Source of the DNA: an uncultured Candidatus Binatia bacterium
GTDB taxonomy: Bacteria > Desulfobacterota > Binatia > Bin18
Direction: 5' to 3'
Assembly (NCBI GenBank): GCA_965218395.1
Contig: OZ244620.1
Location: forward strand, 1,226,818 to 1,290,817
DNA: 64,000 nt
Shown here: positions 3,552 through 58,086 of the stretch, in pieces
Position numbering within the stretch: the stretch's first letter is position 1
Layout: every line of letters begins with the position of its first letter
The notes under the pieces: generated by a model
Database searches by the model: none
Told to the model about the DNA's origin: nothing
Seen by the model: only the letters and a program-made list of their open reading frames with translations
Program-made: the position numbers and the translations under genes

Positions 3552-3764
3552 ATGAAGCTATACTGGGACACGCCTGAGGATATTGCCGAGCAGCTCTTCG
3601 AAGCCCAGCCCGAGACCGATCCGTTGAGCATCCGTTTTACCGATTTGCTCCGCTGGGTCACCACCCTGGAGGATTTTAGCGACGACCCCCAGGAGTCGAG
3701 CGAGGGTAAACTCGAAGCCATCCAAATGGCCTGGCTGGAAATATATAAAGAGGAAAACGCTTAG
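3552..3764 (+). CDS. iscX: IscX/YfhJ Fe-S assembly protein
   Basis: DPLSIRFTDL..W, LEAIQMAW; 70 aa acidic; operon position. Confidence 0.9.
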   Translation: MKLYWDTPEDIAEQLFEAQPETDPLSIRFTDLLRWVTTLEDFSDDPQESSEGKLEAIQMAWLEIYKEENA

Positions 3765-11641: not shown

Positions 11642-11818
11642 ATGGCAGAAAAAGCCGACCTGAAAAAACAGATGAAAGAGCTCAAAGGGCAACGTGATAC
11701 GGCCCTGGAGCAAAAGGAACACAAAGAACTCAAAAAGATCCGACGCAACATCCACTCCGTCAAACGGCAGTTACGCGCCCTGGCACAAAGAGGAAACGTG
11801 TCCTCCAACAGCGTGTAG
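11642..11818 (+). CDS. Small basic helical protein (58 aa, absent from ORF track)
   Basis: RBS AAGGAAG, then MAEKADLKKQMKELKGQRDTALEQKEHKELKKIRRNIHSVKRQLRALAQRGNVSSNSV*. Confidence 0.7.
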   Translation: MAEKADLKKQMKELKGQRDTALEQKEHKELKKIRRNIHSVKRQLRALAQRGNVSSNSV

Positions 11819-11840
11819 ATGCTGGACACGTTTCCTCTTT
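11787..11840. repeat. Palindromic element copy 1 (17-bp perfect arms)
   Basis: AAAGAGGAAACGTGTCC-N20-GGACACGTTTCCTCTTT; overlaps the 3' end of the 11642 ORF. Confidence 0.9.
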
Positions 11841-11993
11841 TGAAGCGACCCCGGCTGCGTAATACTCTTTTGCTTCGGCCCCGGTCCGGGCTGCTACGAG
11901 AAAAGGCAGGGGAGCCCGCTCCCTGTCCGTCTACACCGCCCGCTCGGACTTCTCCCTAGCCCCCAACCGCCCAGGCATGAAAGGAAGCAGGCT

Positions 11994-13460
11994 ATGAATG
12001 TTCGGGTCCAATCGCACGCCATCACGGCGGTTCGCACTGACCTGCTGGTGGTCTCGGTCGCGCAGGGGAAACACAACGCCGCACACCTGAAAGCCCTGGA
12101 TGCCGCGGTGGATGGCGCGCTGCGCGAGCAGCTGAGACGCAGCCGATTCCAGGGCAAACCCGGCCAGACCCTCCTGTTCCAGACGCATAAGCGCCTCCCC
12201 AGCGGATTGGTGCTGCTGGTTGGACTCGGCAAGCAGGCGAGTGTTGAGTCGTCCACCTGGCGTCAGGTCGGCGCCACGGCCCGTCGCCAGGCGCAGGAGC
12301 AGCGCGCGAAGAGCCTGGCCTGGTTTGTCGAACCCGGCCTGGATGTGCAGGACATGGGCGCCGCTGTGCTCGAAGGGCTACTGCTGTCCGGCTATGCCTT
12401 CCACAAGTATAAATCCGACAACGGGGAAAAGACGGTCCTTGAGACCTTCACCCTGGTTGGTCCCGGTCTCAGAAAAAGTGTCCGGCTGAGCCGCGCCCTC
12501 GAAACGGTCCACAATACGGTTCCGGGCGTCTTTCTGGCTCGCGATTTGGTCAATGAACCCGCTTCGGTTTCAACCCCGACGTATCTGGCCAGTCAAGCCA
12601 AAAAGCTCTCTGACGGAAACGGGCTCAAGACCGAGGTCTGGGGCGTGAGCAAGATCAAGGCGGCCAAAATGCACGGGCTGCTGGCGGTTTCGCGCGGCGG
12701 TCCGGAAGAGCCGCGCTTCATCAAGCTGCGCTATACCCCCGCGGCCAAGCCCAAAAAGAAGGTCGCCCTAGTCGGCAAGGGCCTCACCTTTGACTCGGGC
12801 GGCCTTTCGCTCAAGCCGGCCAAGTCCATGGAGACGATGAAGATTGATATGTCGGGTGGGGCAACCGTGCTGGGGACGATGCGGGCGATTGCCGCGCTCA
12901 AACCGCAGGTGCAGGTCACGGGCTATGTGCCCTCGTCTGAAAATATGCCGAGCGGCACGGCTCAGAAACCCGGTGATATCATCAGCTATCGAAACGGCAA
13001 AACCGTCGAGGTCCTCAATACGGATGCAGAGGGCCGTCTGATCCTGGCCGATGCGCTGATCTGTGCCGTAGAAGACAAGCCCGACGTCATTATTGACCTG
13101 GCCACCCTGACCGGCGCCTGCATGGTCGCCCTGGGCTCCCAGGTCGCCGGGCTGTTCAGCAATAATCAGCAACTGACGGATGCTTTATTAGCCAGCAGCA
13201 AAGAGACGGGCGAGCAATTATGGCCCATGCCCCTGGTGAAGGAGTATAAGGACGACATCAAGAGTTCCATCGCCGACATTAAAAATATCGGTGGCGGCTA
13301 TGGCGGGGCGATTACCGCGGCCCTTTTTCTCGAAGAGTTTGTCTCGGAGGTTCCCTGGGCGCATCTGGATATTGCCGGTCCGGCCTTTTCGGAGCGCGCC
13401 CCAAGGGGCGGCACCGGCTTTGGCGTGCGGACGCTCGTGCAGTATGTGTTGAGTTTGTAG
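11994..13460 (+). CDS. pepA: Leucyl aminopeptidase (M17)
   Basis: VGKGLTFDSGG, MKIDMSGGA, NTDAEGRLILAD, WAHLDIAG. Confidence 0.95.
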   Translation: MNVRVQSHAITAVRTDLLVVSVAQGKHNAAHLKALDAAVDGALREQLRRSRFQGKPGQTLLFQTHKRLPSGLVLLVGLGKQASVESSTWRQVGATARRQAQEQRAKSLAWFVEPGLDVQDMGAAVLEGLLLSGYAFHKYKSDNGEKTVLETFTLVGPGLRKSVRLSRALETVHNTVPGVFLARDLVNEPASVSTPTYLASQAKKLSDGNGLKTEVWGVSKIKAAKMHGLLAVSRGGPEEPRFIKLRYTPAAKPKKKVALVGKGLTFDSGGLSLKPAKSMETMKIDMSGGATVLGTMRAIAALKPQVQVTGYVPSSENMPSGTAQKPGDIISYRNGKTVEVLNTDAEGRLILADALICAVEDKPDVIIDLATLTGACMVALGSQVAGLFSNNQQLTDALLASSKETGEQLWPMPLVKEYKDDIKSSIADIKNIGGGYGGAITAALFLEEFVSEVPWAHLDIAGPAFSERAPRGGTGFGVRTLVQYVLSL

Positions 13461-13508
13461 CGCACCCCGCAGGGGAGACGGGGATTCCGGCGTAGCCTCT
13501 TTTTACCG

Positions 13509-14198
13509 ATGCGGACTATTGCCCAACTCCAACGCCAGATCGTTGCCTGCCGGCGCTGTCCCCGGCTCGTTCAGCACTGCCGGCGCACGGCCCAAGAGAA
13601 AATCAAACGCTACCGCGACTGGGACTATTGGGGCAAGCCGGTGCCGAGCCTGGGTGACCGCAGCGCGCGCCTGTATGTCGTCGGTCTGGCACCGGCCGCG
13701 CATGGCGGCAACCGGACGGGCCGGGTGTTTACCGGAGACCGCAGCGGAGACTGGGTTTTCGGCGCGTTGCACGCCTATGGCTTCGCCAGCCAGCCGACCT
13801 CAACCCATATGGATGACGGCCTCAGGCTACAGGGCGCGTATATCACCGCGGCCGTCCATTGTGCGCCGCCGGACAACAAGCCGTCGCGAGAAGAATTCGA
13901 CGCCTGCCAACCCTATCTGCTGCGTGAACTCCAACTGCTGAAACAGGTCAGGGTCGTGGTGGCGCTGGGGCAACTGGCTTTTGCGGCCTATCTCAAAGCC
14001 CGGCGGGAAGTCGGCCTGCGGGTGCCGACGCCCCGGCCGCAATTCGGACATGCAAAGCGTTACGACCTGGACGGCGTCAGCCTCATCGCTTCCTACCATC
14101 CCAGCCAACAGAACACCTTTACCGGCCGGCTGACGCAGCCCATGTTTCATGCCGTCTTCCGCGAGGCGCGGGAGATCATCGGGGGCGCTGGGCTTTGA
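13509..14198 (+). CDS. Uracil-DNA glycosylase, family 5 (UdgB-like, 4Fe-4S)
   Basis: CRRCPRL, VGLAPAAHGGNRTGR.FTGDRSG, HCAPPDNKP, SYHPSQQNT. Confidence 0.92.
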   Translation: MRTIAQLQRQIVACRRCPRLVQHCRRTAQEKIKRYRDWDYWGKPVPSLGDRSARLYVVGLAPAAHGGNRTGRVFTGDRSGDWVFGALHAYGFASQPTSTHMDDGLRLQGAYITAAVHCAPPDNKPSREEFDACQPYLLRELQLLKQVRVVVALGQLAFAAYLKARREVGLRVPTPRPQFGHAKRYDLDGVSLIASYHPSQQNTFTGRLTQPMFHAVFREAREIIGGAGL

Positions 14199-14247
14199 TA
14201 CGAAGAGTCTGTGCCTGGTGCGCCTTCAGGCCGGCTGGATGCCACCC

Positions 14248-15075
14248 TTATTCGGGAAAGATCGCGTTAATGACCTCATCAATCGCGCGCTGGGAGTCGT
14301 TGTCATCCGTCAGCGAACGGGAGACGGCAACGGTACACGCGCGCCGCGGTGTCACCCCCTGGCGCATGAGTTGGCCGGAATAAATGAGCAGCCGCGTGCT
14401 GACGCCTTCTTCCAGGCCGCTGGCTTTCAGGTGGCGGACCTTTTCGCCCAGCTTGGCCAGGTCGAGCGCGGTTTCCAGCGACAAATCACTCTCGTGGGCA
14501 ATGATCTCGGCCTCCTTATCGCGGGGCGGATAGGTGAACTCGACCGTGACAAAGCGCTGCCGCGTCGAGTGTTTGAGGTCCTTGAGGATGCTCTGGTAGC
14601 CGGGGTTGTACGAGATGACCAGCAGAAAATTATCATGCGCTGCAAGGATTTCGGCCCGCTTATCAACCGGCAGAATGCGTCGATGGTCGGTCAGCGGATG
14701 GATGAGGACGATGGTGTCCTTGCGCGCCTCCACGATCTCGTCCAGATAACAAATCGCCCCGGTGCGGACCGCCTGAGTCAGCGGGCCGTCCACCCAGACG
14801 GTATCATCGCCCTTAATCAGATAGCGCCCGACCAGATCGCTCCCCGTCAGGTCTTCATGGCAGGCGACCGTGACGATGTTTTCGGGGGCTTCCTCACCGC
14901 GGTTCGGCATGAGCACATGGGCCATATGCTCGACGAAGCGGGTCTTGCCGCAGCCGGTCGGACCTTTCAGCAGAACCGGCAGCCGACACTCATAGGCGGC
15001 CCGAAAAATCTCGACCTCGTCGCCTATGGGTAGATAAAACGGAACCGCACCATTCGGGGTAGTATCTTCGCTCAT
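14248..15075 (-). CDS. CbbQ/NirQ/NorQ-type MoxR AAA+ ATPase
   Basis: [47 protein letters not shown]. Confidence 0.9.
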
Positions 15076-15099
15076 AATCGTGACTCGTTTCCTCTTTTT

Positions 15100-16266
15100 T
15101 TATGAGGTGGTGGTGAGAGTCTCCATGACTTGCCGGGTATCAATATCGATCAGCTCAACGGTCGCCACCTCACTGCTGCCGGTCTTTTGCCCGGCATCGA
15201 TGAGCTGGCCGCGGAGTTTTTCTCTGAAACCGTCCCGGACAGGCTGAGGCATACCAGCCATGGGGAAATTGCGAAAGAAGACCTGGGCCTGGGTTGACGA
15301 CAGCCACTTAATCCGGACGATTTTGGGCGCCATCATTTCATGTGAGCGAAAGAGCGCTTCGACCGCTTGCTGAAACGCTGAGGCTGGGGTTGGCGACGCG
15401 GTCCGGGAGGGGGGCGTCCCGTTCGAGAATTGTTCCAGAAGCTGGTCGACGCGGGCCTGAATGGCGGTGTTGTCCGTCAGACTCCTGGCCTGCCGTAATG
15501 CGGCGAGCGCTTGTTCGGGCAGGCCCTTCTCCTGGTAGGCCACCCCCAGGTTAAAACGCGCCTGAAAGAAGTCCGGCCGCTCGGCCAGGACGGCCTGATA
15601 GGCAGCGATGGCCAGGTCGATCTGGCCGGTATAGAGGTACATGGTCCCCAGGTCGGTCGTCACGCCGACATCGTCCGGTTTCAGGGCTAAATAGCGCCGA
15701 TAATACTCGATCGCCTTGTGGTGTTCCTCAAGGTCGTAGTACACATTCCCCAGGCCGCGCAGCGCAGCCAGATCACCCGGTACAAGTGCAAACAGCTTGC
15801 GATAGGAAGCCAGGGCCGCACTGCGGTAGCTGGCATCGAGCTGCGACGCTCGGAACTGGACTTCGGCCAGGGTCCGCCACGCACTGGGGTCTTGCGGGGC
15901 GGCATTGGCCTGGGCAACCAGTTCCGCGATACGACTCTTGGCCTCCTCCGGCAGGGCAACCTGGGGATGATTCTGGGGCAGGGCCGAACCGCCCGTGCTG
16001 GCTTGCGTGGCAGGGGTCGGGGTCGGGGCGAAAGGCTCTGTCCGCAGGACAAAGAGCCAGAGTCCGATGCCGACGGCGAGGTAGCAGGACAAAACGATGA
16101 GGCCGGGCAGCGGCAGCCGCCGCGCGCCGGTCGCCGCTGGGGCGGCCGATTTTCGGGCTTTCTGCCCGCCGGCCTGGCCCCCGAGGGCTTCCCCACAATT
16201 CGTACAGAAATGTGCTTTGGGGATAGTCTCTGTCCCGCACTGTGGGCAAAAACGCGCTGTCGCCAT
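15100..16266 (-). CDS. Zinc-ribbon / TM / TPR protein
   Basis: FCPQCG..FCTNCG, one TM helix, LPQNHP, several TPR repeats. Confidence 0.8.
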   Translation of the reverse strand: MATARFCPQCGTETIPKAHFCTNCGEALGGQAGGQKARKSAAPAATGARRLPLPGLIVLSCYLAVGIGLWLFVLRTEPFAPTPTPATQASTGGSALPQNHPQVALPEEAKSRIAELVAQANAAPQDPSAWRTLAEVQFRASQLDASYRSAALASYRKLFALVPGDLAALRGLGNVYYDLEEHHKAIEYYRRYLALKPDDVGVTTDLGTMYLYTGQIDLAIAAYQAVLAERPDFFQARFNLGVAYQEKGLPEQALAALRQARSLTDNTAIQARVDQLLEQFSNGTPPSRTASPTPASAFQQAVEALFRSHEMMAPKIVRIKWLSSTQAQVFFRNFPMAGMPQPVRDGFREKLRGQLIDAGQKTGSSEVATVELIDIDTRQVMETLTTTS

Positions 16267-16326
16267 CCGGCCTCTCCCTCCGTGCACTCTACCTAACAAC
16301 AATACCCCAGGCGGGCTAGACCGGGC

Positions 16327-16334
16327 AGGCGGCG
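16327..16334 (+). repeat. Left 8-bp target-site duplication
   Basis: AGGCGGCG immediately before IRL. Confidence 0.85.
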
Positions 16335-16339
16335 GGTGC

Positions 16340-16414
16340 TGTCCTAATTCAGCGCGGGGTGTCCTAAGTTGGGGGAAGTTTGTCCTAATTTGAGCGGCGA
16401 ACTGTCCTAATTTG
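16340..16414 (+). repeat. Four direct copies of TGTCCTAA(T/G)T spaced 20, 21 and 22 bp
   Basis: Copies start at 16340, 16360, 16381, 16403; AACTGTCCTAATTTG (16400-16414) recurs exactly at 21500-21514. Confidence 0.9.
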
Positions 16415-16955
16415 TGGCGGGGTGGCGGGCGCTAATAACGTCCTCGATTATCCCGAATAAGACGTATTACATCCTGATCTCCTTCTGCGACACCGGCAAC
16501 AAAATTGGTATCCTTAGGAGGCAGAGTGGCATGTTCATGAAAATGTATCGCAATTAACAGTTAAGGGCTTGACATTAGCCCTCGTTCAATCTCGGTGACT
16601 TCAGCTCTTATGATACCATTACCTATCGCTCGCAGGCTCGGCGGGTCGGGGCAATATCGATCATCATAGCTAAAGGAGTGACAAGCATGAGCGACAACTC
16701 CAGCGACCGCCATTGATCGAACTGCGTCCTCCCATCGACGCACATGTCGCGCTCATCGAGACAAGATTTCAAGCTAGATTTCGTGACCCGTGTTTGTCGG
16801 CACCTCGTGCGAGATATTCTGACCACCATCCGTGTACCATCTTGCATGGTCGACTAAGTCGTTGGACAAAATCTCGCTGCTCCCCAAACCTCAGCGTTAG
16901 CGTAGATTGCTACACCATGCTAAAGTAACCCGGCCCGGCGATGGCACCCAGCGGG

Positions 16956-17052
16956 GCGACATCGAGAAGCAGTTGGCGATGACAGCGGCATCGAGAAGCA
17001 GTTGGCGATGACAGCGGCATCGAGAAGCAGTTGGCGATGACAGCGACATCAA
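16956..17052 (+). repeat. 29-bp tandem repeat (~3.3 copies) overlapping the ATPase start
   Basis: Unit GACAGCGGCATCGAGAAGCAGTTGGCGAT, no spacers. Confidence 0.92.
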
Positions 17053-18914
17053 GGGGATCGGATCAGCTTGACCGGCTTGAAGAGAGTATCCGAGCAGCCG
17101 ACAACCATCAACCATTTGAGACTCCGCTTGCGACCAGCGAACGAATCATCGCTCGGGTTACCGACGGAATCTACCGGGAGCCTTGGGCCGCATTCCGCGA
17201 ACTAGTCGCCAATGCATATGATGCTGACGCGTCATATGTGGTGATCGAAACCGGCCGACCCGACTTCCAACGCATGACAGTACGGGACGACGGTATTGGA
17301 ATGTCCCCCAGGACTCTCGCATACGTCTTAAAGAACATAGGCGGCAGCTCGAAGCGAACCGCTGCCGGAACTGAACTCAAGACCGTCAAAAGCGGCGCCC
17401 CCGACCTCAGCCCAGGCGGCCGTCCCCTCATCGGAAAAATCGGTATCGGGTTGTTTGCCATCGCGCAACTAACCCAACATTTTCAGATCATTACCAAGGC
17501 CGCCGGAGAAAACCACAGGCTATCCGCCACCGTCAAACTTCACACCCATGACGAGGAGAGAACTCAACAAGACGACGCGGACTATGTCGCTGGACGCGTG
17601 GTAATTGTGTCCGAGAAGGTTCCAGACAAGGAAATAGAGTCTCACGGTACATCTGTAGTCCTTTACCAGCTGCGCGATGAAGTTCGCCGAACGCTTCAAA
17701 GTGATAGGCTCTGGAACGCTACGCTAGTCGAGTCTGGGGGTGGTGAGTCCGTACGGAAACCGCCACAATTCCATATTGGTTACCTCGGGAAACCGCCGCA
17801 GGAACCTAATTTGCCGTGGCAAGACAAGGACAGCCCGAAAAATAAGTTCGATAGGTTCTTCGAAGCAGCAAGCAGCGCTTCCGGAAGAACAATCAAGTCG
17901 TCGAATCTGGACCATTTCGACGAGTATCTCCGGCTCGTATGGAAGTTAAGCCTCTCCCTTCCTCTAAACTACATTGGTGGTCATCCATTTGATCTGGATG
18001 GATCGAGTGGCATTCTATTTCTTGGCCTTCCAGACGAGAAGGGACAAGCCGACGAACTGCGCCTTGCACCCACAGAATCGCTCCGTGAACATTTGGGCCT
18101 TGGCATGAGCGGCAAAAATATTAACCATCCATTTTCCGTGACACTCGACGGAATCTCTCTACGACGCCCCATCAGCCTTCCCCGTGACCTGATGAAACCG
18201 TCTCGAGTCGGCGCACCGGTTTTGGTCGCCACGAAACAGGAAAATCCATTCTCTGAGAGCACTCTTGAGCGGGCAGGAGGTCATCTTTCGTTCGACGCAT
18301 ATCTCTACTGGAATAGTAAGATAATTCCAAAAGAAACAGCCGGGGTGCTAATTCGAATTCGTGGATCTAGTGGAACACTATTCGATTCCACATTTCTAAA
18401 CTATCAAGTGTCGGAACAAACCAGGCTGCGTCAGATAACCGCCGAAATGTTTATTCACGAGGGGCTCGACAGCGCTATTAACATCGACCGTGAGTCGTTC
18501 AACTACAGTCATCCTCACTTTTTGTATATCCAAAGATGGCTTCACCGGGCGCTTCGACTTCTTGTCAATCGTCTGAAGGCGCGGGCCGCTGCAGATCTCG
18601 CGCGCGCAAAATCCGAGCTTCGAAATAAGGCACTCAGCTACGCGGCAGAGGTCTGGAGTCGTCGGTTGGGGGATGAGGCTGATCCACCATTTTCAGATCC
18701 CACCGTGAGTACCCTTCCCGATGAGGTCGGCGGAGCGGATATCGACTGGCCTTCCGAAGGTATTCTGACTAGCCGGGGTAAACATGTTGGAACAGGCCGA
18801 ATTAGCGCGCTTGCCGCCATTCTGGAGGCGTACGGCGTTTTATCCAGCCTACCCGCTGAGGACCGGGCTCGGATCATCAGCGATATTCTCGGCATTCCCG
18901 AAACAGACGCATAA
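17037..18914 (+). CDS. MORC-like GHKL (HATPase_c/Hsp90-type) ATPase
   Basis: RELVANAYDADA, VRDDGIGM, IGKIGIGLFA, HGTSV; C-terminal S5-like half (..LDSAINIDRESFN); start may be TTG 17031. Confidence 0.85.
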   Translation: MTATSRGSDQLDRLEESIRAADNHQPFETPLATSERIIARVTDGIYREPWAAFRELVANAYDADASYVVIETGRPDFQRMTVRDDGIGMSPRTLAYVLKNIGGSSKRTAAGTELKTVKSGAPDLSPGGRPLIGKIGIGLFAIAQLTQHFQIITKAAGENHRLSATVKLHTHDEERTQQDDADYVAGRVVIVSEKVPDKEIESHGTSVVLYQLRDEVRRTLQSDRLWNATLVESGGGESVRKPPQFHIGYLGKPPQEPNLPWQDKDSPKNKFDRFFEAASSASGRTIKSSNLDHFDEYLRLVWKLSLSLPLNYIGGHPFDLDGSSGILFLGLPDEKGQADELRLAPTESLREHLGLGMSGKNINHPFSVTLDGISLRRPISLPRDLMKPSRVGAPVLVATKQENPFSESTLERAGGHLSFDAYLYWNSKIIPKETAGVLIRIRGSSGTLFDSTFLNYQVSEQTRLRQITAEMFIHEGLDSAINIDRESFNYSHPHFLYIQRWLHRALRLLVNRLKARAAADLARAKSELRNKALSYAAEVWSRRLGDEADPPFSDPTVSTLPDEVGGADIDWPSEGILTSRGKHVGTGRISALAAILEAYGVLSSLPAEDRARIISDILGIPETDA

Positions 18915-18916
18915 AT

Positions 18917-20110
18917 ATGGCGCCCGACGAACCCAATCGGCCGATTGCTGATGAGGTACTACCTGCACAGATCGACGACCTGGCGGTCCCGGTAGCACTA
19001 GACAAACTCTTCCCTTGGCATCGCCCGCGCAAACAATTGGTCCGGGAAAAACAGTGGATACACTTTTCTCGGCAGCTCATCGAAAGGGAAAAGGGTCAAC
19101 CGGGATTACGTGGCTCGCCGAATGCCAACCCAGAAGTCCGGTTCTTAACGCTTCCAGGAATTGACTACCTTGACGTGCGTCAGCTTGCCGACGTATGCCA
19201 AGATCTCGGCTGCTCCCTGACGAGTATAGGATTTCAATCGGGAGGCGAGCAGAATGCCTATGTCGCCCGGGCACAACTCCGAGAAAAGTCTCTGATTGAT
19301 GCTAAGCGCATAACTAGTCAATCACACACCTTCCCGAGAAGGCTCGAGGACATCGTATCTACAAGTAGCCAAGCGTATCAGGAGCTGAAAGAACGCGGGC
19401 CTTTTCACATTGTGAATATAGATGCGTGCGGGTCGATTGCCGCTCCACGGGCGGATCACCCCAACCGTTTGATCGAAGCCGTGTACAGGATTGTTGAGCT
19501 ACAACTTGAACTCATGACTGGCAGATGGTTGCTCTTTGTCACCACCGATGTCCGGCCAGGCTCTGTTGCCCGCGAGACTAGAGATAGGCTCTACAATACG
19601 ATATTCGAAAATGCGGACAAGAACGAAGAATTTCGGAACCGGGCGGTGCCTTTCCTGGCCCCCGGTGAGGTGGATATCAGGGCCGCTGTGAGGACGGCTT
19701 CCGCAAGGCCGGGAATCACGTCTCTCCAGCTCTTTTCGCTCGGCCTCGCCAAATGGTTCATCCACTTGGCACGTGATAAGAACTGGGACATGCAGACCCA
19801 CCATCCCTACTGCTACTCCACGATGCCTGGGAATAACAACACTCCGTCGATGACTTGCCTCGCGTTTGAATTTCTTCCACCGTCTCCAGGTCTTCAGGAT
19901 AGGTTTCAAGTTGCGCGAGCAGAACCTGCTCCTGCGTCGGGACGGGAGGATACGTCGGTACGTGCCGCTGACAAGATAAGAGACATGACCAATGCTGATA
20001 GTAAGATCGGCTCGGATGAACCACTCCGTAACCGTATGGTGGAAGACCTTCGGATGTTGCTCGCGGAAGTCGGCTACAGTTCTACACTGCTGGACGAAAT
20101 TGGAGCATAG
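18917..20110 (+). CDS. Uncharacterised protein, possibly SAM-methyltransferase-like fold
   Basis: FPWHRPRKQ.VREKQW, VRFLTLPGIDYLDVR, HIVNIDACGS; 2 nt after the ATPase stop. Recalls the PP_RS20740-type family (from memory, unverified). Confidence 0.55.
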   Translation: MAPDEPNRPIADEVLPAQIDDLAVPVALDKLFPWHRPRKQLVREKQWIHFSRQLIEREKGQPGLRGSPNANPEVRFLTLPGIDYLDVRQLADVCQDLGCSLTSIGFQSGGEQNAYVARAQLREKSLIDAKRITSQSHTFPRRLEDIVSTSSQAYQELKERGPFHIVNIDACGSIAAPRADHPNRLIEAVYRIVELQLELMTGRWLLFVTTDVRPGSVARETRDRLYNTIFENADKNEEFRNRAVPFLAPGEVDIRAAVRTASARPGITSLQLFSLGLAKWFIHLARDKNWDMQTHHPYCYSTMPGNNNTPSMTCLAFEFLPPSPGLQDRFQVARAEPAPASGREDTSVRAADKIRDMTNADSKIGSDEPLRNRMVEDLRMLLAEVGYSSTLLDEIGA

Positions 20111-21120
20111 GCCGACGCGGAATTTACTGCCGCGACTGTCCCGAGTGCCGAACTGATAGACTTTGCGATAGCTTCGGCTAGCGGCGGCGGAACCGCCTCG
20201 CTCACTTGGTCAATCTGCGCCGAAAGGGTCCCGTCCAGAACGTACTCCTTGGGAAACCCTTGAATCCTCATAGCCTCAAACACGCTCAGCCGCCGTTTGC
20301 CGTCAGGATGCACATGCACCTCCCGATGCCCGTAAGATGCCGTGATGCTCGGTTCGTCCCAGGCGAGTGTCTTAAAGCTACGGGTCGACGAATACCCCTC
20401 GACGAGGGAACCGTCAAAGAACCTGCGGGACTTGGGCGTCATGCACCAGTGATTCGGGTGAACCGGGATCGATTCCTTTTCGATACCTCGGGCAAAATAC
20501 ACCGGCGTAGGCAGACCCCGAATCGCATCTCCGACCGTCACACGCTCCTCGTTTCCGACAGGCGGAGACCACCGCTTCATATAAAATTTATCTTTCGGAA
20601 GCGCTAGCACAAACAGCCGATTGCGATGTTGCGGCACCGAGTGACAAGCCGCATTTACAAGGAAGTCACAAACATCGAAACCATTCTCTTCCAAGCGATT
20701 GATTTCCTGGGCGAGAAGACGGCTGTTCACCGCCCTCTTGAGGTCAGGAACGTTCTCCATCAGTATGAAGTCAAGTGGTCGGCGGTATTTATGGAACTGT
20801 AGTGCTATGGAAAAGAAACGTCGCACCAACTTGCTCCGTGGGTCGGCGACCGAGGCCGAACTGTTAGCCCGTGAAAAGCTCTGGCAGGGCGGGCCGCCGA
20901 TCACGCCGCTCGGAACGAATCTGGCTCCGTGGTCGCAGTCCATATCCGCCAACCGAATCGCTCGTAAGTCGGTGACATGGCCGCGTTGCTCCCCAGGTCG
21001 GTTGCGGTTCCAGGAAGCTATTGAATTTGCGCGAATATCGTACGCCAAGCCGATTTCGAAACCTGCCCGCTCGAAACCTAGATCCAACCCCCCACAACCC
21101 GAGTACAGGCTCAGTAACAC
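20074..21120 (-). CDS. DNA (cytosine-5)-methyltransferase
   Basis: SLYSGCGGLDLG, GGPPCQSFS (catalytic PC), MENV, QHRNRLF, RRLSVFEAMRIQGFP; GTG start after GGGAGG. Confidence 0.92.
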   Translation of the reverse strand: MLLSLYSGCGGLDLGFERAGFEIGLAYDIRANSIASWNRNRPGEQRGHVTDLRAIRLADMDCDHGARFVPSGVIGGPPCQSFSRANSSASVADPRSKLVRRFFSIALQFHKYRRPLDFILMENVPDLKRAVNSRLLAQEINRLEENGFDVCDFLVNAACHSVPQHRNRLFVLALPKDKFYMKRWSPPVGNEERVTVGDAIRGLPTPVYFARGIEKESIPVHPNHWCMTPKSRRFFDGSLVEGYSSTRSFKTLAWDEPSITASYGHREVHVHPDGKRRLSVFEAMRIQGFPKEYVLDGTLSAQIDQVSEAVPPPLAEAIAKSISSALGTVAAVNSASAYAPISSSSVEL

Positions 21121-21553
21121 AATGCATCGCCTCCCGCCTACAATAAGCCTAGCACAATTGACCAATGAGTGCTCCCGCTAAATCAGGGTGGTAGAGGGAA
21201 CCCCCACAAGCCGCTGAAGAGCAGAGCAGGATTGCCCACCAGAAGGGCCGCCGCCCTTGTAGTTGATTACAGAAATTGTCTTTACGTCTTTTTTCTCTCC
21301 CGAGTTTAGACAAGGCGTTTGTCACTCTTAGCTTGACATGTGACCGTCACTAACGGCTTGTTCGTGACTTTGATAGTCATGCCGTATGTGACTCCTTGGT
21401 CTATTTCCCATAAATTCCTGCTACCTTCTGCAGTAATCATACTCATAATCCCATGCTTGGCTCACCGTTGTACACGTCACTCATATGTCCCTCCCCACCA
21501 ACTGTCCTAATTTGAAAAAACAAATCGGAAGCTGTCCAAATTAGGACAGTACC

Positions 21554-21561
21554 AGGCGGCG
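21554..21561 (+). repeat. Right 8-bp target-site duplication
   Basis: AGGCGGCG immediately after IRR. Confidence 0.85.
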
Positions 21562-21622
21562 AATCCAGTTGACAGTCAAGGAGTTGGCTGGATAAGCTGC
21601 GGGCAGCCCTGGGGAGGAATAC

Positions 21623-22897
21623 ATGGCAAAAAAAAGTGCGAAGCGCGACGCTCGCCTGGCACAAGGCAAAAAAGTGCTGGAAGAATGGGGCATTCAGCCC
21701 TCTGCCGGACAGGACGGCAGCCTGGATATTGCCAGCCTGCATGAGCGCATAGGACAGCAGGCTGACGCCGACCTGGCCCTGGCCGCATTCCTGGGCGAGG
21801 TCCAGACGGCAGAGGCGGCCCAATTCCTGGCGGGTTGGGAGGAAAAGGCGGCTGATAAGCGGGTGCGTAAAGAGATTAGCCGGGCCCTCTATCGCCTGGC
21901 GCAAAAAGGGATACGGGCCGACCGGCCGCAAAAGGCAGCGGGCAAGTCCATTCTCACCCCGATTGAACCGGAAGGCTATATCTCCGCAATGGATGGCCGC
22001 GGCGATCGCCTCGTTTGGATAGTGAAATCACGCCTTGGCGGCGGGCTGCATTTCTTGTCTTCGCTGATCAACGAACCAGAAGGGATGCGCTATATTGAGG
22101 GCACGGAAATATCGCGCAAAGTGCTGCGGCAGGCGCTTCAGGATTTGAGCGCTAACCGCGGACTGACTCTGATTGAAGCGCCGTGGCGGTATTGCGATTT
22201 CCTGATGCAGGAAGGCTATGAACGTGCACAGGCACAGGACAAAAAAGAGGTGGAATCCTACCCGGCGGCGCGGTCCTTTGTGTTCACCACGCCGCCAGAA
22301 AGAGTAAACGTGTCCTCCAATCGTTCAGACAAAGCTGGACACGTTTACTCTTTACCCCAAACAGTTCCGCTGCCGGACAGTTTGGATCGGCATGCAATCG
22401 CTGCCGACGAAAATCTACTTGTAACGTCCACTCAGCTTGCCGAAGAACCGGAAATGCAGCGCTGGGTATTCGACCCGGAACAGGCCAAGCCCTATGTCGA
22501 AAAGATAAGCAGTGCGCAGGAGAGCCCGCTGGTGCTGAACCAGCATCAGCAAAAAGACCGGGTGGACGAGGTCATCAAACAAGCGGTTGCCGAGGTGTTT
22601 TCAGGCGAGAGCGGCCGGGCCTACGCGCGGCGTCTGGAAGAAACGGCGCTGTATTTTGCGGCAAGCGGACGTTTGGAGTCAGCCCAACGTGCCCTGGCCG
22701 TGTCTCTGGCGCTCCAAAAAGAGGGCGCGAGCGGCAGTGGTATTCCCTTTTGTGAAGGCTTGGTCCAGCAGAGCATCGGCCTGCACTACACGGAAGAAAA
22801 GCAACACCAACAGGAAGAGGCCAAAGGCTCGCTCATTATGAAGCCGTCCGAGTTTGCGGCGCGGGCGCAGCAGGCCCAGCGCCAGCGGCGGGTCTGA
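21623..22897 (+). CDS. Conserved-looking helical hypothetical protein with an in-frame palindrome insertion
   Basis: 424-aa open frame with host-like codon usage; no family recognised. Confidence 0.7.
   Translation: MAKKSAKRDARLAQGKKVLEEWGIQPSAGQDGSLDIASLHERIGQQADADLALAAFLGEVQTAEAAQFLAGWEEKAADKRVRKEISRALYRLAQKGIRADRPQKAAGKSILTPIEPEGYISAMDGRGDRLVWIVKSRLGGGLHFLSSLINEPEGMRYIEGTEISRKVLRQALQDLSANRGLTLIEAPWRYCDFLMQEGYERAQAQDKKEVESYPAARSFVFTTPPERVNVSSNRSDKAGHVYSLPQTVPLPDSLDRHAIAADENLLVTSTQLAEEPEMQRWVFDPEQAKPYVEKISSAQESPLVLNQHQQKDRVDEVIKQAVAEVFSGESGRAYARRLEETALYFAASGRLESAQRALAVSLALQKEGASGSGIPFCEGLVQQSIGLHYTEEKQHQQEEAKGSLIMKPSEFAARAQQAQRQRRV
22299..22353. repeat. Palindromic element copy 2, inside a CDS
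   Basis: AAAGAGTAAACGTGTCC-N21-GGACACGTTTACTCTTT, translated within ERVNVSSNRSDKAGHVYSL. Confidence 0.9.
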
Positions 22898-29717: not shown

Positions 29718-30309
29718 TCATACCATCCAGGCCTCCTCGGCATATTCGGACGCGCGTTCCCGGACCATAGGGGATGATTTCGACGGGGAACCGTATAAAC
29801 GGTCGGATTCCCATTTTGCCGGATTGTTGATGATGTAGTCACGAATGTGGTGCAGTTCCCGTTCGTTGCGGACAATGTGGTCCCAATAGTTGCGTTGCCA
29901 TAATCGGCCGGGAAACGGTTTCCAGCCGGTGTGTTTGACGGCCTCCGTGTATCGTTTCGTGGTTAATGTTTTGTACCGATGCACCACATCCGGCAACGAC
30001 ATGGGCGTCGTAGGGGGACGGGGGTGATCCTGCATCGGGTGGCTGAATGGTGAGAATGCCGTGGATGTGGTTGGGCATGACGATGAAGGCGTCTGTTTCA
30101 ATGCAGGAGTAATTCGCAGGTAATTCATCCCACGCGCCCTGCACCATTTGACCGGCATCGTTCAACACCATCTCACCATCCGCAACATCGCCAAACAGAT
30201 ATTCGTTGTTTTGGGTGCAAAGAGTGACAAAATACGCTCCCGGCTGCGCATACCTGTATCCCTGCAAACGGATGGAGCGGCGGTGATGTTTGGCCGGGTC
30301 GTATGCCAT
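29718..30309 (-). mobile_element. REP-associated tyrosine (HUH/Y1) transposase, frameshifted near 30000-30045
   Basis: HHRRSIRL..Y..PGAYFVT.CT, VMPNHIHGI in one frame; LWQRNYWDHIVRNE in another. Confidence 0.85.
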
Positions 30310-55373: not shown

Positions 55374-55387
55374 GACAAAACCGTCAC

Positions 55388-56450
55388 TAGAGCCTTCTGT
55401 GAATAGATTGAATCGGGGGGGGGTTCTTCAAGCCAGGGGGGCGGTGTGGCAAGCTGCGGGGAGCGGGAGGAAGGAGGCGAGCAGCAGATGGCCCGAGCGT
55501 ATTCTCAAGACTTGCGGGACCGAGTGATTGATGCCGTGACGCGGGAGGGGCTGAGCCGGCGGGCCGCGGCGCGGCGGTTTGGGGTCAGTAGCGCGTCCGC
55601 GATCAAGTGGCTCCAGCGCGTGCACAGGACCGGGGAGCGGGGGAGCGCGGGCACCGGGGGGCATCGGCCCTCGCAGGTGCAACCGGAGCGGGCGTGGTTA
55701 TTGGCGGTGATCGCGGTGCAGCCGGACATCACGCTGGCCGCGTTGGCGGCCCGGTTGTTGGAAGAGCGGGGGGTGAGGGCGGATACAGGGATGTTGTCCC
55801 GGTTCTTCACAGGGGCCGGGATCAGCTTTAAAAAAAGCCTCTCGGCCTCCGAGCAGGCGCGCCCGGACATCGCGCGGCGCCGGGCCCGCTGGCAGCGCGC
55901 GCAAGGCCAGCTTGATCCCCACCGGCTCGTGTTTATTGATGAGACGTGGGCCAAGACTAATATGACCCGCAGCCACGGCCGCTGCCCGCGTGGCCAGCGG
56001 TTGGCCGCCACGCGGCCCTATGGGCATTGGCAAACTCTGACCTTCGTGGCGGCCCTCCGGCGCGACCGCCTGACCGCCCCCTGTGTCTTCAACGGCCCGA
56101 TCAACGGTCCCCGCTTCCTCGCCTATGTGGAACAATGCCTCCTCCCCACGCTGACTGCTGGCGATATCGTCATCCTGGACAATCTCAGCAGCCACAAGAG
56201 CGCCGCCGTGCGGACCGCCATCGAGCGGGCGGGCGCCACGCTGCGCTTCCTGCCCCCCTATTCGCCCGATCTCAACCCGATTGAACAGGTCTTCGCCAAG
56301 CTCAAAGCCTCCCTCCGCCACGCGGCGGAACGCACGGTCGAGGCGACATGGCAACGGGTCGGAACCCTCCTTGATCGCTTCGGACCTGAGGAATGCCGCC
56401 ATTACTTCACCCATGCTGGCTATGCGTCAACCTAAAAACAGAAAGCACTA
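55388..56450 (+). mobile_element. IS630-family insertion sequence
   Basis: Ends CTAGAGCCTTCTGT / ACAGAAAGCACTAG (imperfect IR, TA-centred). Confidence 0.85.
55488..56435 (+). CDS. IS630 transposase, single reading frame
   Basis: MARAYSQDLR, VFIDET, ILDNLSSHK, LPPYSPDLNPIEQVF. Confidence 0.92.
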   Translation: MARAYSQDLRDRVIDAVTREGLSRRAAARRFGVSSASAIKWLQRVHRTGERGSAGTGGHRPSQVQPERAWLLAVIAVQPDITLAALAARLLEERGVRADTGMLSRFFTGAGISFKKSLSASEQARPDIARRRARWQRAQGQLDPHRLVFIDETWAKTNMTRSHGRCPRGQRLAATRPYGHWQTLTFVAALRRDRLTAPCVFNGPINGPRFLAYVEQCLLPTLTAGDIVILDNLSSHKSAAVRTAIERAGATLRFLPPYSPDLNPIEQVFAKLKASLRHAAERTVEATWQRVGTLLDRFGPEECRHYFTHAGYAST

Positions 56451-57288
56451 GGGTCAGGACTCATAAAGGGGGTTTTCTTGGCCAGCAGGGTGTGCTGCTC
56501 TCTCTGCCGTGGAGGGAAGAAGCGATGAGTAATCAGTTCTGGCTGTCCGCAGCCCAATTTGCCCGGCTCCAGCCGCTGTTGCCGACGGCCACGCGCGGGG
56601 TGCCGCGGGTGGACGACCGGCGGGTCATTTCGGGGATCGTGCACGTGTTGCAGAGCGGGTGTCGGTGGCGCGCTACGCCGCCCGTCTATGGGCCGTCCAA
56701 GACGTTGTACAACCGGTTCGTGCGCTGGGCGCGGAAGGGGGTCTGGGAGCGCGTCTTCACGGCACTGGCCCCGGCCGGCGGCCCGCCCGAGACGCTGATG
56801 CTCGATGCGACCTACGTCAAGGCGCATCGGTCGGCGGGGGGCGGAAAAGGGGGGCGCAGCAGCAGGCGATTGGGCGATCCCGTGGGGGGCGGACCACGAA
56901 AATCCATGCCGCGGTCGATGAGGCCGGCCGCCCCCGGCGGCTGATTATCGGCCCGGGCCATCGCGGGGACGCGCCTGTCGGCGCTGCCCTTGTGGCCACC
57001 CTGCGTCCGGCCCGCTGCCTGGCCGATACCGCCTACGACAGTGAGGCGTTGCGCGCCTGGCTGGAGACCCGGGGCTGCCAGCCGGTCAGCCCCAACAATC
57101 CGACTCGCAAGCGGAAACACCCCTTCGACAAAACCGCTTATCGGGCACGCAATATCATTGAACGTACCTTCTGTCGGCTCAAAGACTGGCGCCGCATCGC
57201 CACCCGCTACGACAAGCTCGCATACAACTACCTCGCCGCCGTCGCCCTCGCTGCCATCGTCATCTATTGGTTATGAGTCCAGACCCTA
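56449..57288 (+). mobile_element. IS5-family (IS427-group-like) insertion sequence, two-ORF frameshift transposase (56525-57276)
   Basis: IR CTAGGGTCAGGACTCATAA / TTATGAGTCCAGACCCTAG; orfA MSNQFWLS..LDATYVKAH, orfB GRSRGG..TKIH..LADTAYD..RNIIER.F..LK.WRRIATRYDK; slippery GGAAAAGGGGGG. Confidence 0.9.
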
Positions 57289-58086
57289 GAGCGTGTAGAA
57301 GGCGTAGCGCAGGGATAGCCACACCCCGTGGCTCGACAGATGGGCACGCGTTCGACCTACGTTGAGAGGAACCAGGACGTCGCCGGCCCGATTGACGACC
57401 CGTGCGATTCCCTCGTCTGTCTCGACGGCGCCGGAATCCGTATAGCGATACGCGATATCAAGCGTCAGCTTATCGGTCAGCGAGGTACCGACCCCCGCCG
57501 TCAGCATCCAGGCGAAATTGACTCGATGTCCACCCGGAGCGATAGTCCGCGTTCTGGTGAACTTCATACGGGTTTTGCCGATATCGATATACGTGGCGCC
57601 AGCGCCGGCGCCGATGAACGGGCTGAACGGCCCGAGCCGCGGCAGGCCCAACTGCGGCAGGTCCACATAGGCGGCAAACATGCCGGACAGGGAGGACAAT
57701 CGCGCCGAGACCTCCTGCCGACCTTGAGTTTGCAAAAAGTTAGCGCGGCCGGTGAGGGTGAATCTCGGACGGTACTGAAACAGGGCCTCAATCCGCAGGG
57801 CAGGCATGATGGCGTGGCCGAGCCCAAGCTCGAAGCCGGCCGGCGCGCTGAAATCGCCGTGCGTGCTCAAGGGCGCTCCGTCGTTGCCTGTCCCGCAGCC
57901 ATACAGGGCGTATATGGCCGGCGGAGTGTGGTTCGTACAGTCCTTGTCCTTGAAGCGCGTGTCCTCCGACCAATCGAGACCGACCCCGGCCCGCACATAG
58001 ACATCCTTCGCCTGAGCCCCGGCCCCGGAGGGCAAAGATATGGTCGTGATGACCGCGAAAATCGTATGGATTTGCCACCCCTTCAT
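57286..58086 (-). CDS. Outer-membrane beta-barrel protein (opacity/OmpA-TM-like)
   Basis: Signal peptide, GPFSPFIGAGAG, NFAWMLTAGVG, LDIAYRY.D.G, LSLRYAF. Confidence 0.8.
   Translation of the reverse strand: MKGWQIHTIFAVITTISLPSGAGAQAKDVYVRAGVGLDWSEDTRFKDKDCTNHTPPAIYALYGCGTGNDGAPLSTHGDFSAPAGFELGLGHAIMPALRIEALFQYRPRFTLTGRANFLQTQGRQEVSARLSSLSGMFAAYVDLPQLGLPRLGPFSPFIGAGAGATYIDIGKTRMKFTRTRTIAPGGHRVNFAWMLTAGVGTSLTDKLTLDIAYRYTDSGAVETDEGIARVVNRAGDVLVPLNVGRTRAHLSSHGVWLSLRYAFYTL

Follow-up and report, generated by a model that had tools for sequence, protein, structure and literature searches.

The window analyzed here is a stretch of 64,000 nucleotides, C1:1226818-1290817, where C1 is the main contig of a 5.0-Mb, 59% G+C Candidatus Binatia genome of sponge-associated origin. 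It contains two copies of a short palindromic element, one at the end of a small open reading frame (ORF) and the other within a longer conserved gene (Table 1). Copy 1 consists of AAAGAGGAAACGTGTCC, TCCAACAGCGTGTAGATGCT and GGACACGTTTCCTCTTT, in that order, and copy 2 of AAAGAGTAAACGTGTCC, TCCAATCGTTCAGACAAAGCT and GGACACGTTTACTCTTT; an exact 15-mer covering an arm and the start of the loop is found twice within the window. A preliminary description of this DNA had reported two palindromes with perfect 17-mer arms, and this is borne out: the arms of both copies pair perfectly over 17 bp and differ at position 7, where copy 1 has G:C and copy 2 has T:A. That difference had been taken for a compensatory change. 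It is real, but it marks two subfamilies of the element and not an independent compensation between the window copies. Folding as single-stranded DNA produced the expected hairpin for both copies on either strand, with energies of -16.7 to -20.4 kcal/mol and z scores of -5.3 to -6.2, and none of 200 shuffled sequences folded as well.

Table 1. The two element copies of the window and the genes in which they lie (window coordinates).
Feature	Coordinates	Strand	Description
Small Lys/Arg-rich ORF	11642-11818	+	58 aa; last 10 codons (QRGNVSSNSV) and stop from copy 1
Element copy 1	11787-11840	+	54 nt, G7:C subfamily, 20-nt loop; arms 11787-11803 and 11824-11840
Displaced native 3′ end of small ORF	11841-11866	+	TGAAGCGACCCCGGCTGCGTAA; out of frame, untranslated; from alignment of filled and empty alleles
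Copy-2 host gene	21623-22897	+	conserved 424-aa protein, function not assigned
Element copy 2	22299-22353	+	T7:A subfamily, 21-nt loop, palindrome of 55 nt

The protein that hosts copy 2 has matches at 20 loci of congeneric genomes, with 76-92% identity in the best matching segment; its sole Pfam signal was a YcbB-domain match below threshold. Mobility as used here means comparative presence or absence between relatives, known from sequences alone. At the copy-2 locus eight of the 20 orthologues (L010-L012 and L015-L019) are empty and read ..GCAGAA|CCCCAG.., with exactly 54 nt fewer and the peptide RVNVSSNRSDKAGHVYSL absent. Nine loci are filled, two of them (L003 and L004) in the same assembly, and the remaining three (L007 and L013/L014) retain in-frame remnants. 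The comparison of filled and empty alleles revealed no duplicated target bases. The palindrome of 55 nt given in the preliminary description stands, but the net insertion is 54 nt (22300-22353 or 22301-22354), the outermost A being common to the target. This DNA encodes RVNVSSNRSDKAGHVYSL as residues 227-244, and the junction between element and host reads, for example, ..TTPPERVNVSSNR... Copy 2 was correctly placed in the middle of a gene, and its 18 residues are an insertion; the alternative that they form part of a conserved core fails.

The insertion lies within a Pro-rich segment that is variable among the orthologues. In the structure predicted for the 424-aa protein by AlphaFold2, the stretch 206-249 is coil with a predicted local distance difference test score (pLDDT) below 50 and is flanked by two better-modelled parts. 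Blocks of ten residues have mean pLDDT of 27-33 over 211-250 in a model that is poor as a whole (mean 59, from a 20-sequence alignment), and this points, if weakly, to a disordered linker at the site. Sequencing runs that contain the locus include sponge metatranscriptomes. Among the RNA contigs, where only contigs are concerned and DNA carry-over is possible, one enters copy 2 from the gene and continues for 28 nt, up to 22326, and none has a splice-like joint at the copy.

All filled copy-2 alleles have one and the same loop. Since this loop is seen at no other locus of the genome under study, a single insertion is indicated; since then either the element has been lost seamlessly more than once or species have exchanged alleles. 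In one filled orthologue (L008; G308, OY729511, approximately 3675-3730) the same insertion has a compensated transversion pair, T7>G and A>C, and in another (L005) only the left arm has changed. This pattern suggests correction from arm to arm or conversion by a G7:C copy.

At copy 1 the small ORF is terminated by a TAG of the loop (11816-11818). Empty alleles were found in four congeners, L045 (G323), L046 (G326), L047 (G310) and L064 (G306), and filled ones in G301, G308 and G322. The empty alleles continue ..CTG GCA CGT GAA GCG GCC CCG GCT GCG TAA, that is ..LAREAAPAA*, and in the window seven native terminal codons have been exchanged for ten element codons. The preliminary description had named the element as the source of the last ~10 codons and the stop. 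The codons and the stop do come from it, but a native tail, REAAPAA*, was displaced in the process. Over the aligned stretch the differences between this ORF and its congeneric counterparts appear by eye to be mostly synonymous, which makes it probable that the ORF is a real gene; Pfam gave no match, and none of the RNA contigs runs across it.

Copies in the whole genome were counted by two routes. A regular expression on the 8-nt arm cores found 62 copies with perfect cores, and an nhmmer profile located 140 distinct loci, every one on the main contig. The length is 54 nt in 91 copies and 55 nt in 31; perfect stems occur in 28 copies and stems with a single mismatch in 54. Arms of 17 bp follow the pattern [A/G]AAGAG(T/G)AAACGTGTCC, so written that the element ends are [A/G]AAGAG and CTCTT[T/C]; between the arm and its complement lies a conserved, asymmetric loop of 20-21 nt. 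The consensus is AAAGAGTAAACGTGTCC-TCCAATAGACATG(C)AGATGCT-GGACACGTTTACTCTTT. Loop subfamilies can be recognized, and arm position 7 is dimorphic (84 T:A, 30 G:C). Of the 28 genomes in the genus, 20 had the arm pattern; perfect-core copies numbered 1-61 per genome, the genome studied here having the most. The pattern turned up in one of 27 further genomes of the same family, and a phylum-wide sample of 300 other genomes, including one congeneric, had no instance of it. Exact matches to the arm pattern in other phyla and in two viral contigs were rejected as unrelated hairpins, their stems continuing through the region that is the loop in the element.

Genes beyond the window were called with our own crude caller, which uses a codon-usage score trained on the long ORFs of this genome. 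The ORF and codon-score scan placed ~16 copies (~11%) in frame and wholly inside 13 genes. Hosts of nine families were confirmed with Pfam: a RimO/MiaB methylthiotransferase (two copies), cytochrome c, BamD (two copies), a TonB-dependent receptor, a family III CoA-transferase, an APH kinase, a HEAT protein, MltA and MnhA. Mfd, a double UvrA and an AddB-like nuclease (two copies) were recognized by eye. Element-free alleles were sought by running a chimeric probe of the joined flanks against the genus and retrieving the matching loci, and one was found in a relative for all 15 internal copies tested; filled and empty alleles differed by exactly 54 nt in 13 of these comparisons, by 60 in one and by 55 in one, and none of the 15 showed a target-site duplication. 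The two RimO sites were filled independently, G323 having the copy at site 1 only and G322 and G307 that at site 2 only, and the CoA-transferase insert aligns with a gap in the solved homologue 9fn0_A. The rimO region (C1:1088213-1090712) holds four copies of the loop subfamily TCCAATCATC[C/T]AAAAA[A/G]GCT within 2.1 kb, two in rimO and two just downstream, which looks like local hopping.

On the crude gene map, internal copies numbered 23 against 109 expected at random and intergenic copies 55 against 16. Stop-free reading across the element is possible in 118, 68 and 40 of the 140 copies for forward phases 1, 2 and 0, and in 125, 104 and 40 for reverse phases 2, 1 and 0, respectively. Internal copies use forward phase 1 (RVNVSSN..; six copies, including the second BamD copy), forward phase 2 (KSKRVLQ..AGHVSS; seven copies) and, for the remainder, three reverse modes. 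The common orientation and phase of the window copies, ..QRGNVSSNSV* in copy 1 and ..ERVNVSSNRSDKAGHVYSL.. in copy 2, had been pointed out in the preliminary description. It holds for these two but is a coincidence, at least five orientation and phase modes, the ones without stop codons, being in use among internal copies, and the use of several frames is consistent with loss of stop-bearing copies, not with a fixed frame. The forward orientation is enriched among internal copies (13 of 16, P=0.004). The encoded peptides have grand average of hydropathy values of -0.5 and -0.8 in the forward modes and +0.64 and -0.29 in the reverse; the forward excess and the hydrophilic forward peptides are read as selection on the encoded loop.

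Copies at gene ends form a larger class. The ORF scan found ~45 further copies with a gene stop in or abutting the element, and by the crude gene map the stop of a gene lies within the element in 30 cases against 5.8 expected. The triplets AAA GAG TAA (Lys-Glu-stop), contributed by either arm, serve 23 of the stop-donating copies. All ten gene-end copies tested, copy 1 included, are polymorphic. In eight of nine Lys-Glu-stop cases with empty alleles the element had landed 0-6 codons before the native stop, and in about three of these exactly where the last sense codon meets the stop. The remaining case (C1:700261-700315) truncates a longer gene: the ORF here ends after 407 residues, and the empty alleles in G325 and G323 continue in frame (..W G V A D T A P Y L H D G R A L T..).

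The palindrome itself is under constraint. We counted 61 compensated changes of arm pairs in the genome, compared with a shuffle mean of 15.3 (standard deviation 2.9, maximum 25). Half of them represent the G7:C subfamily and the others are scattered, for example GTCTCC/GGAGAC and GTGTTC/GAACAC. Mismatches between the arms, read on the forward strand, are G.T in 55 and A.C in 52 cases; this near-equality gives no sign of a strand-specific RNA structure, and the element has no match in Rfam. Once in place, orthologous copies gather mismatches and deletions, and decay remnants were seen as AAA|TTT in G308 (L040), an 18-nt stump (L062) and a left half (L057). Across ~25 pairs of filled and empty junctions there was no target-site duplication, and no k-mer was strongly enriched in the flanks (best ~3-fold).

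Copies are clustered along the chromosome (48 gaps between neighbours shorter than 5 kb, 18 expected), and loops of neighbouring copies are more alike than otherwise (P=0.002). Three pairs of identical copies suggest recent activity. The strand split is 76 plus to 64 minus, with no orientation bias by replichore. The density is uneven: 25 copies fall in 1.0-1.25 Mb, 26 in 1.5-1.75 Mb and seven in 3.25-4.5 Mb, the last interval containing the GC-skew maximum at 3.98 Mb (the putative terminus). The skew minimum is at 0.70 Mb, which would make the replichores very unequal, and the skew is flat over 1.25-2.0 Mb.

Overall, it is likely that the window palindromes belong to a family of selfish, non-autonomous DNA hairpins confined to one genus. 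The preliminary description had compared them to the Rickettsia palindromic elements (RPEs) and proposed a mobile hairpin, to be checked by a genome-wide copy count, an alignment of orthologues and a test for covariation. All three came out in its favour: ~140 loci confined to one genus, an 18-residue insertion at copy 2, and four times as many compensated arm changes as in shuffled sequences.

A number of observations weigh against this conclusion. No mobilizing gene was found, and nothing transposase-like lies between or beside paired copies; the genes that such pairs bracket are, by eye, prfB, dnaX-ybaB-recR, ffh-rpsP-rimM-trmD, endonuclease III, acyl-CoA dehydrogenases and other housekeeping genes. 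Other repeats revealed by self-BLAST are insertion sequences (IS) with different ends, IS5-like (CTAGGGCGTGT..) and IS630 (CTAGAGCC..). The tree of the copy-2 locus intersperses filled and empty alleles, and its well-supported branches force at least four changes, so that some of the "empty" copy-2 sites may be seamless losses or alleles exchanged by recombination and not pre-insertion states. All gene counts beyond the window depend on the crude codon-score caller, those at 5′ ends being especially unreliable. Finally, the flanks of copies scoring at least 40 bits have a weak symmetric composition bias that is unexplained.

In detail, this bias comprises A at -6 in only 1 of 107 copies, G at -5 in 50% and C at -4, mirrored by R-G-C at +3 to +5. 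Bases at -2 and +2 can pair in 8% of copies, compared with 26% expected. Extension of the stem into the flanks was considered and ruled out, positions ±2 to ±4 pairing less than expected.

Several other origins for such a repeat were weighed. A hairpin with compensated arms and seamless junctions fits HUH chemistry, and the genome has four Y1_Tnp matches (PF01797), two above and two below the Pfam cut-off. The family could on these grounds be one of repetitive extragenic palindromic sequences (REP/REPIN), with copying done by a REP-associated tyrosine transposase (RAYT), one of the Y1 HUH enzymes, on the single-stranded hairpin. We consider this improbable, because the flanks of the four Y1 genes hold other repeats (such as GTAGGGGCAGGCC.., CTGGGAGTGCGGGCTTCC.. 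and GCAGGTGCGTGGGACGCACC..) and no copies of the element, and because, within the genus, seven element-rich genomes, four being single-contig assemblies (27-47 perfect copies), lack Y1_Tnp and five element-free genomes have it. Neither a GTAG nor a CGTC head was found, the left flank has no strongly enriched motif of 4-5 nt, and orientation is unbiased between replichores. Mobilization of the IS200/IS605 type (PATE) was likewise rejected, there being no fixed 4-5-nt target and no lagging-strand-template orientation bias. The perfect terminal inverted repeats, small size, many copies, local clustering and presence/absence polymorphism would also be expected of an ordinary miniature inverted-repeat transposable element (MITE), a deletion derivative of an IS moved by a DDE transposase that binds the 17-bp repeats. 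None of the ~25 filled/empty comparisons, however, has a target-site duplication, no IS with the ends of the element exists in this genome, where solo arms are degenerate copies, and compensatory changes in the arms are contrary to what is predicted for protein-bound repeats. An origin as a MITE is decidedly improbable.

The position of many copies at or within a few codons of stops, in either orientation, and the stem end CTCTTT could indicate that the element is kept mainly for a host function, as a bidirectional terminator, an mRNA-stabilizing hairpin or a protein-binding site, and that its spread is secondary. This is very improbable. Divergent spacers are not avoided (20 copies in divergent against five in convergent spacers), which does not fit a terminator, and copies occur within genes, where a terminator would be harmful. 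A terminator scan leaves the element unflagged, Rfam has no family for it, orthologous copies decay freely, and the symmetry of G.T and A.C mismatches argues against an RNA constraint on one strand. The RNA contig running into copy 2 also points away from a terminator, subject to the possibility of DNA carry-over stated above for such contigs. Finally, the common reading frame of the window copies could mean that what is conserved is a protein motif or domain, R-x-N-V-S-S-N, to which the palindrome is incidental. We give this practically no credence: the peptide is absent from eight orthologues with intact flanks, at least five combinations of orientation and phase are used to read the element, most copies are non-coding, and the peptide belongs to no Pfam family. 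The empty-site alleles refute it.

For the family of selfish hairpins we propose the following scheme. As the alleles show, the unit is inserted precisely and as a whole into unrelated sites, with neither target-site duplication nor a strong target motif, and closely related species differ in having it. Survival within genes would be a filter of selection and not a matter of design: the insertion adds 18 codons, and four of the six reading modes are stop-free in about half of the copies or more. As the peptides encoded by the forward strand are hydrophilic, copies landing in loops or linkers may be tolerated. Landing in the last 0-6 codons of a gene would be tolerated where the arm brings AAA GAG TAA in phase 0, or alternatively where the loop brings TAG in the forward phase-2 reading. 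Movement probably involves a hairpin form of the DNA, single-stranded or cruciform, because pairing of the arms is kept by compensation, mismatches are strand-symmetric and junctions are seamless. This form would be handled by an enzyme acting in trans and not encoded beside the element.

That enzyme is not a resident RAYT/IS200-type Y1 transposase, the transposase of a matching IS or a reverse transcriptase. The profile RVT_1, representing a reverse transcriptase or retron source, had no match in this genome. A search of it with the 17-nt arm, allowing up to three mismatches, found only 12 solo sites, all of them degenerate, truncated or due to chance.

A more speculative possibility, which we rate as rather unlikely, is that the hairpin is self-contained and needs no transposase of its own, the folded single-stranded 54-mer leaving and entering DNA seamlessly by means of host replication or repair enzymes. 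Exit could occur by hairpin bypass or cleavage at the base of the stem, and entry by ligation into a nick or an Okazaki junction; such movement is conceivable for a unit whose pairing extends to the terminal base. This would explain the absence of a duplication, a target motif and a cognate gene. The symmetric AAA|TTT footprint, seamless loss recurring at a single locus, the variability of the terminal pair (A-T, G.T, A.C), the local hopping and the scarcity of copies around the GC-skew peak would also be accounted for.

Several unrelated repeats and mobile elements were noted in the course of the analysis. A RAYT-like Y1 transposase gene on the minus strand of the window (29718-30309) is split into ORFs in overlapping frames, 29839-30309 and 29718-30158. 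Its flanks (to ~29500 and ~30400) hold a different REP family, GTAGGGGCAGGCC(C)CCGTGCCTGCCC, and its C-terminal part has a 93% identical copy at C1:1481047-1481389. RAYT-type genes at C1:2912298-2912528 and C1:206708-207085 have flank repeats of their own (CTGGGAGTGCGGGCTTCCAGCCCGCAA with GCGGCCAAGATGGCCGC, and GCAGGTGCGTGGGACGCACCCTA, respectively), from which it follows that the genome holds several unrelated families of hairpin repeats. At window positions 55387-57292 an IS630-family element (~1066 bp, 342-aa transposase, four genome copies) and an IS5/IS427-like element (~850 bp, ~6 copies) lie back to back; the ends of both have no likeness to the hairpin arms. Contig C2 (9342 bp, 62.5% G+C) has no element copies and encodes, by eye, a 2341-aa surface-like repeat protein and a 320-aa DDE-transposase-like protein; it may be mis-binned.

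Among known systems the family is closest in behaviour to the RPEs; the searchable literature contained no description of Binatia repeats. RPEs (Ogata et al. 2000), as summarized in PMC10969869, are lineage-restricted palindromes that occur in frame in unrelated genes and are translated; their length is roughly 100-150 nt and no cognate transposase is known. On this account both are dispersed, lineage-restricted palindromes, many of them in frame in unrelated housekeeping genes at sites tolerated by the protein, and for neither is a cognate transposase known. The Binatia element is shorter, 54 nt against ~100-150 nt, with only ~11% of its copies internal, and its host is sponge-associated, of a different phylum and with a free chromosome, compared with the reduced intracellular genome that harbours RPEs. 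Judged from size and phylum, homology is unlikely, and the likeness is one of behaviour by description. The Binatia family differs further in its large stop-donating class at gene ends and in junctions that can be read to the base and lack duplications.

The REP/REPIN-RAYT systems of Pseudomonas and Enterobacteria, in which REPs are tagged GTAG/CGTC (PMC3733652), resemble the family as short hairpins in tens to hundreds of copies, mostly extragenic, with stem compensation and without target duplication. However, the Binatia element has a single 17-bp stem with a conserved 20-nt loop, no REP doublet and no GTAG/CGTC; none of its copies lies next to a Y1 gene of this genome, its distribution in the genus does not follow that of Y1_Tnp, and it occurs in frame in genes. 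Bacterial MITEs (Correia/NEMIS, ERIC, RUP, BOX, Nezha and others) are defined by target-site duplication and by an IS with related ends (PMC10969869). They are comparable in being non-autonomous and small, in their terminal inverted repeats, occasional in-frame ORF fusions and local clustering. The two defining features were sought for the Binatia element, the IS by an exhaustive search of the present genome only, and neither was found.

In-frame palindromic elements are treated in the literature consulted as unusually frequent in Rickettsia, and the Binatia family represents the same phenomenon in an unrelated lineage with a large genome. Some two dozen congeneric genomes, many of them complete, hold filled, empty and decayed alleles, and for this reason the insertion junctions can be read to the base. 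This makes it possible to test here how a hairpin moves without duplication or an adjacent transposase, how proteins tolerate 18 foreign residues, and at what rate mobile DNA rewrites C-termini and stops. For the annotation of metagenome-assembled genomes of Binatia the element has direct consequences: it moves gene ends, splits or truncates ORFs, and interrupts short-read assemblies at its copies.

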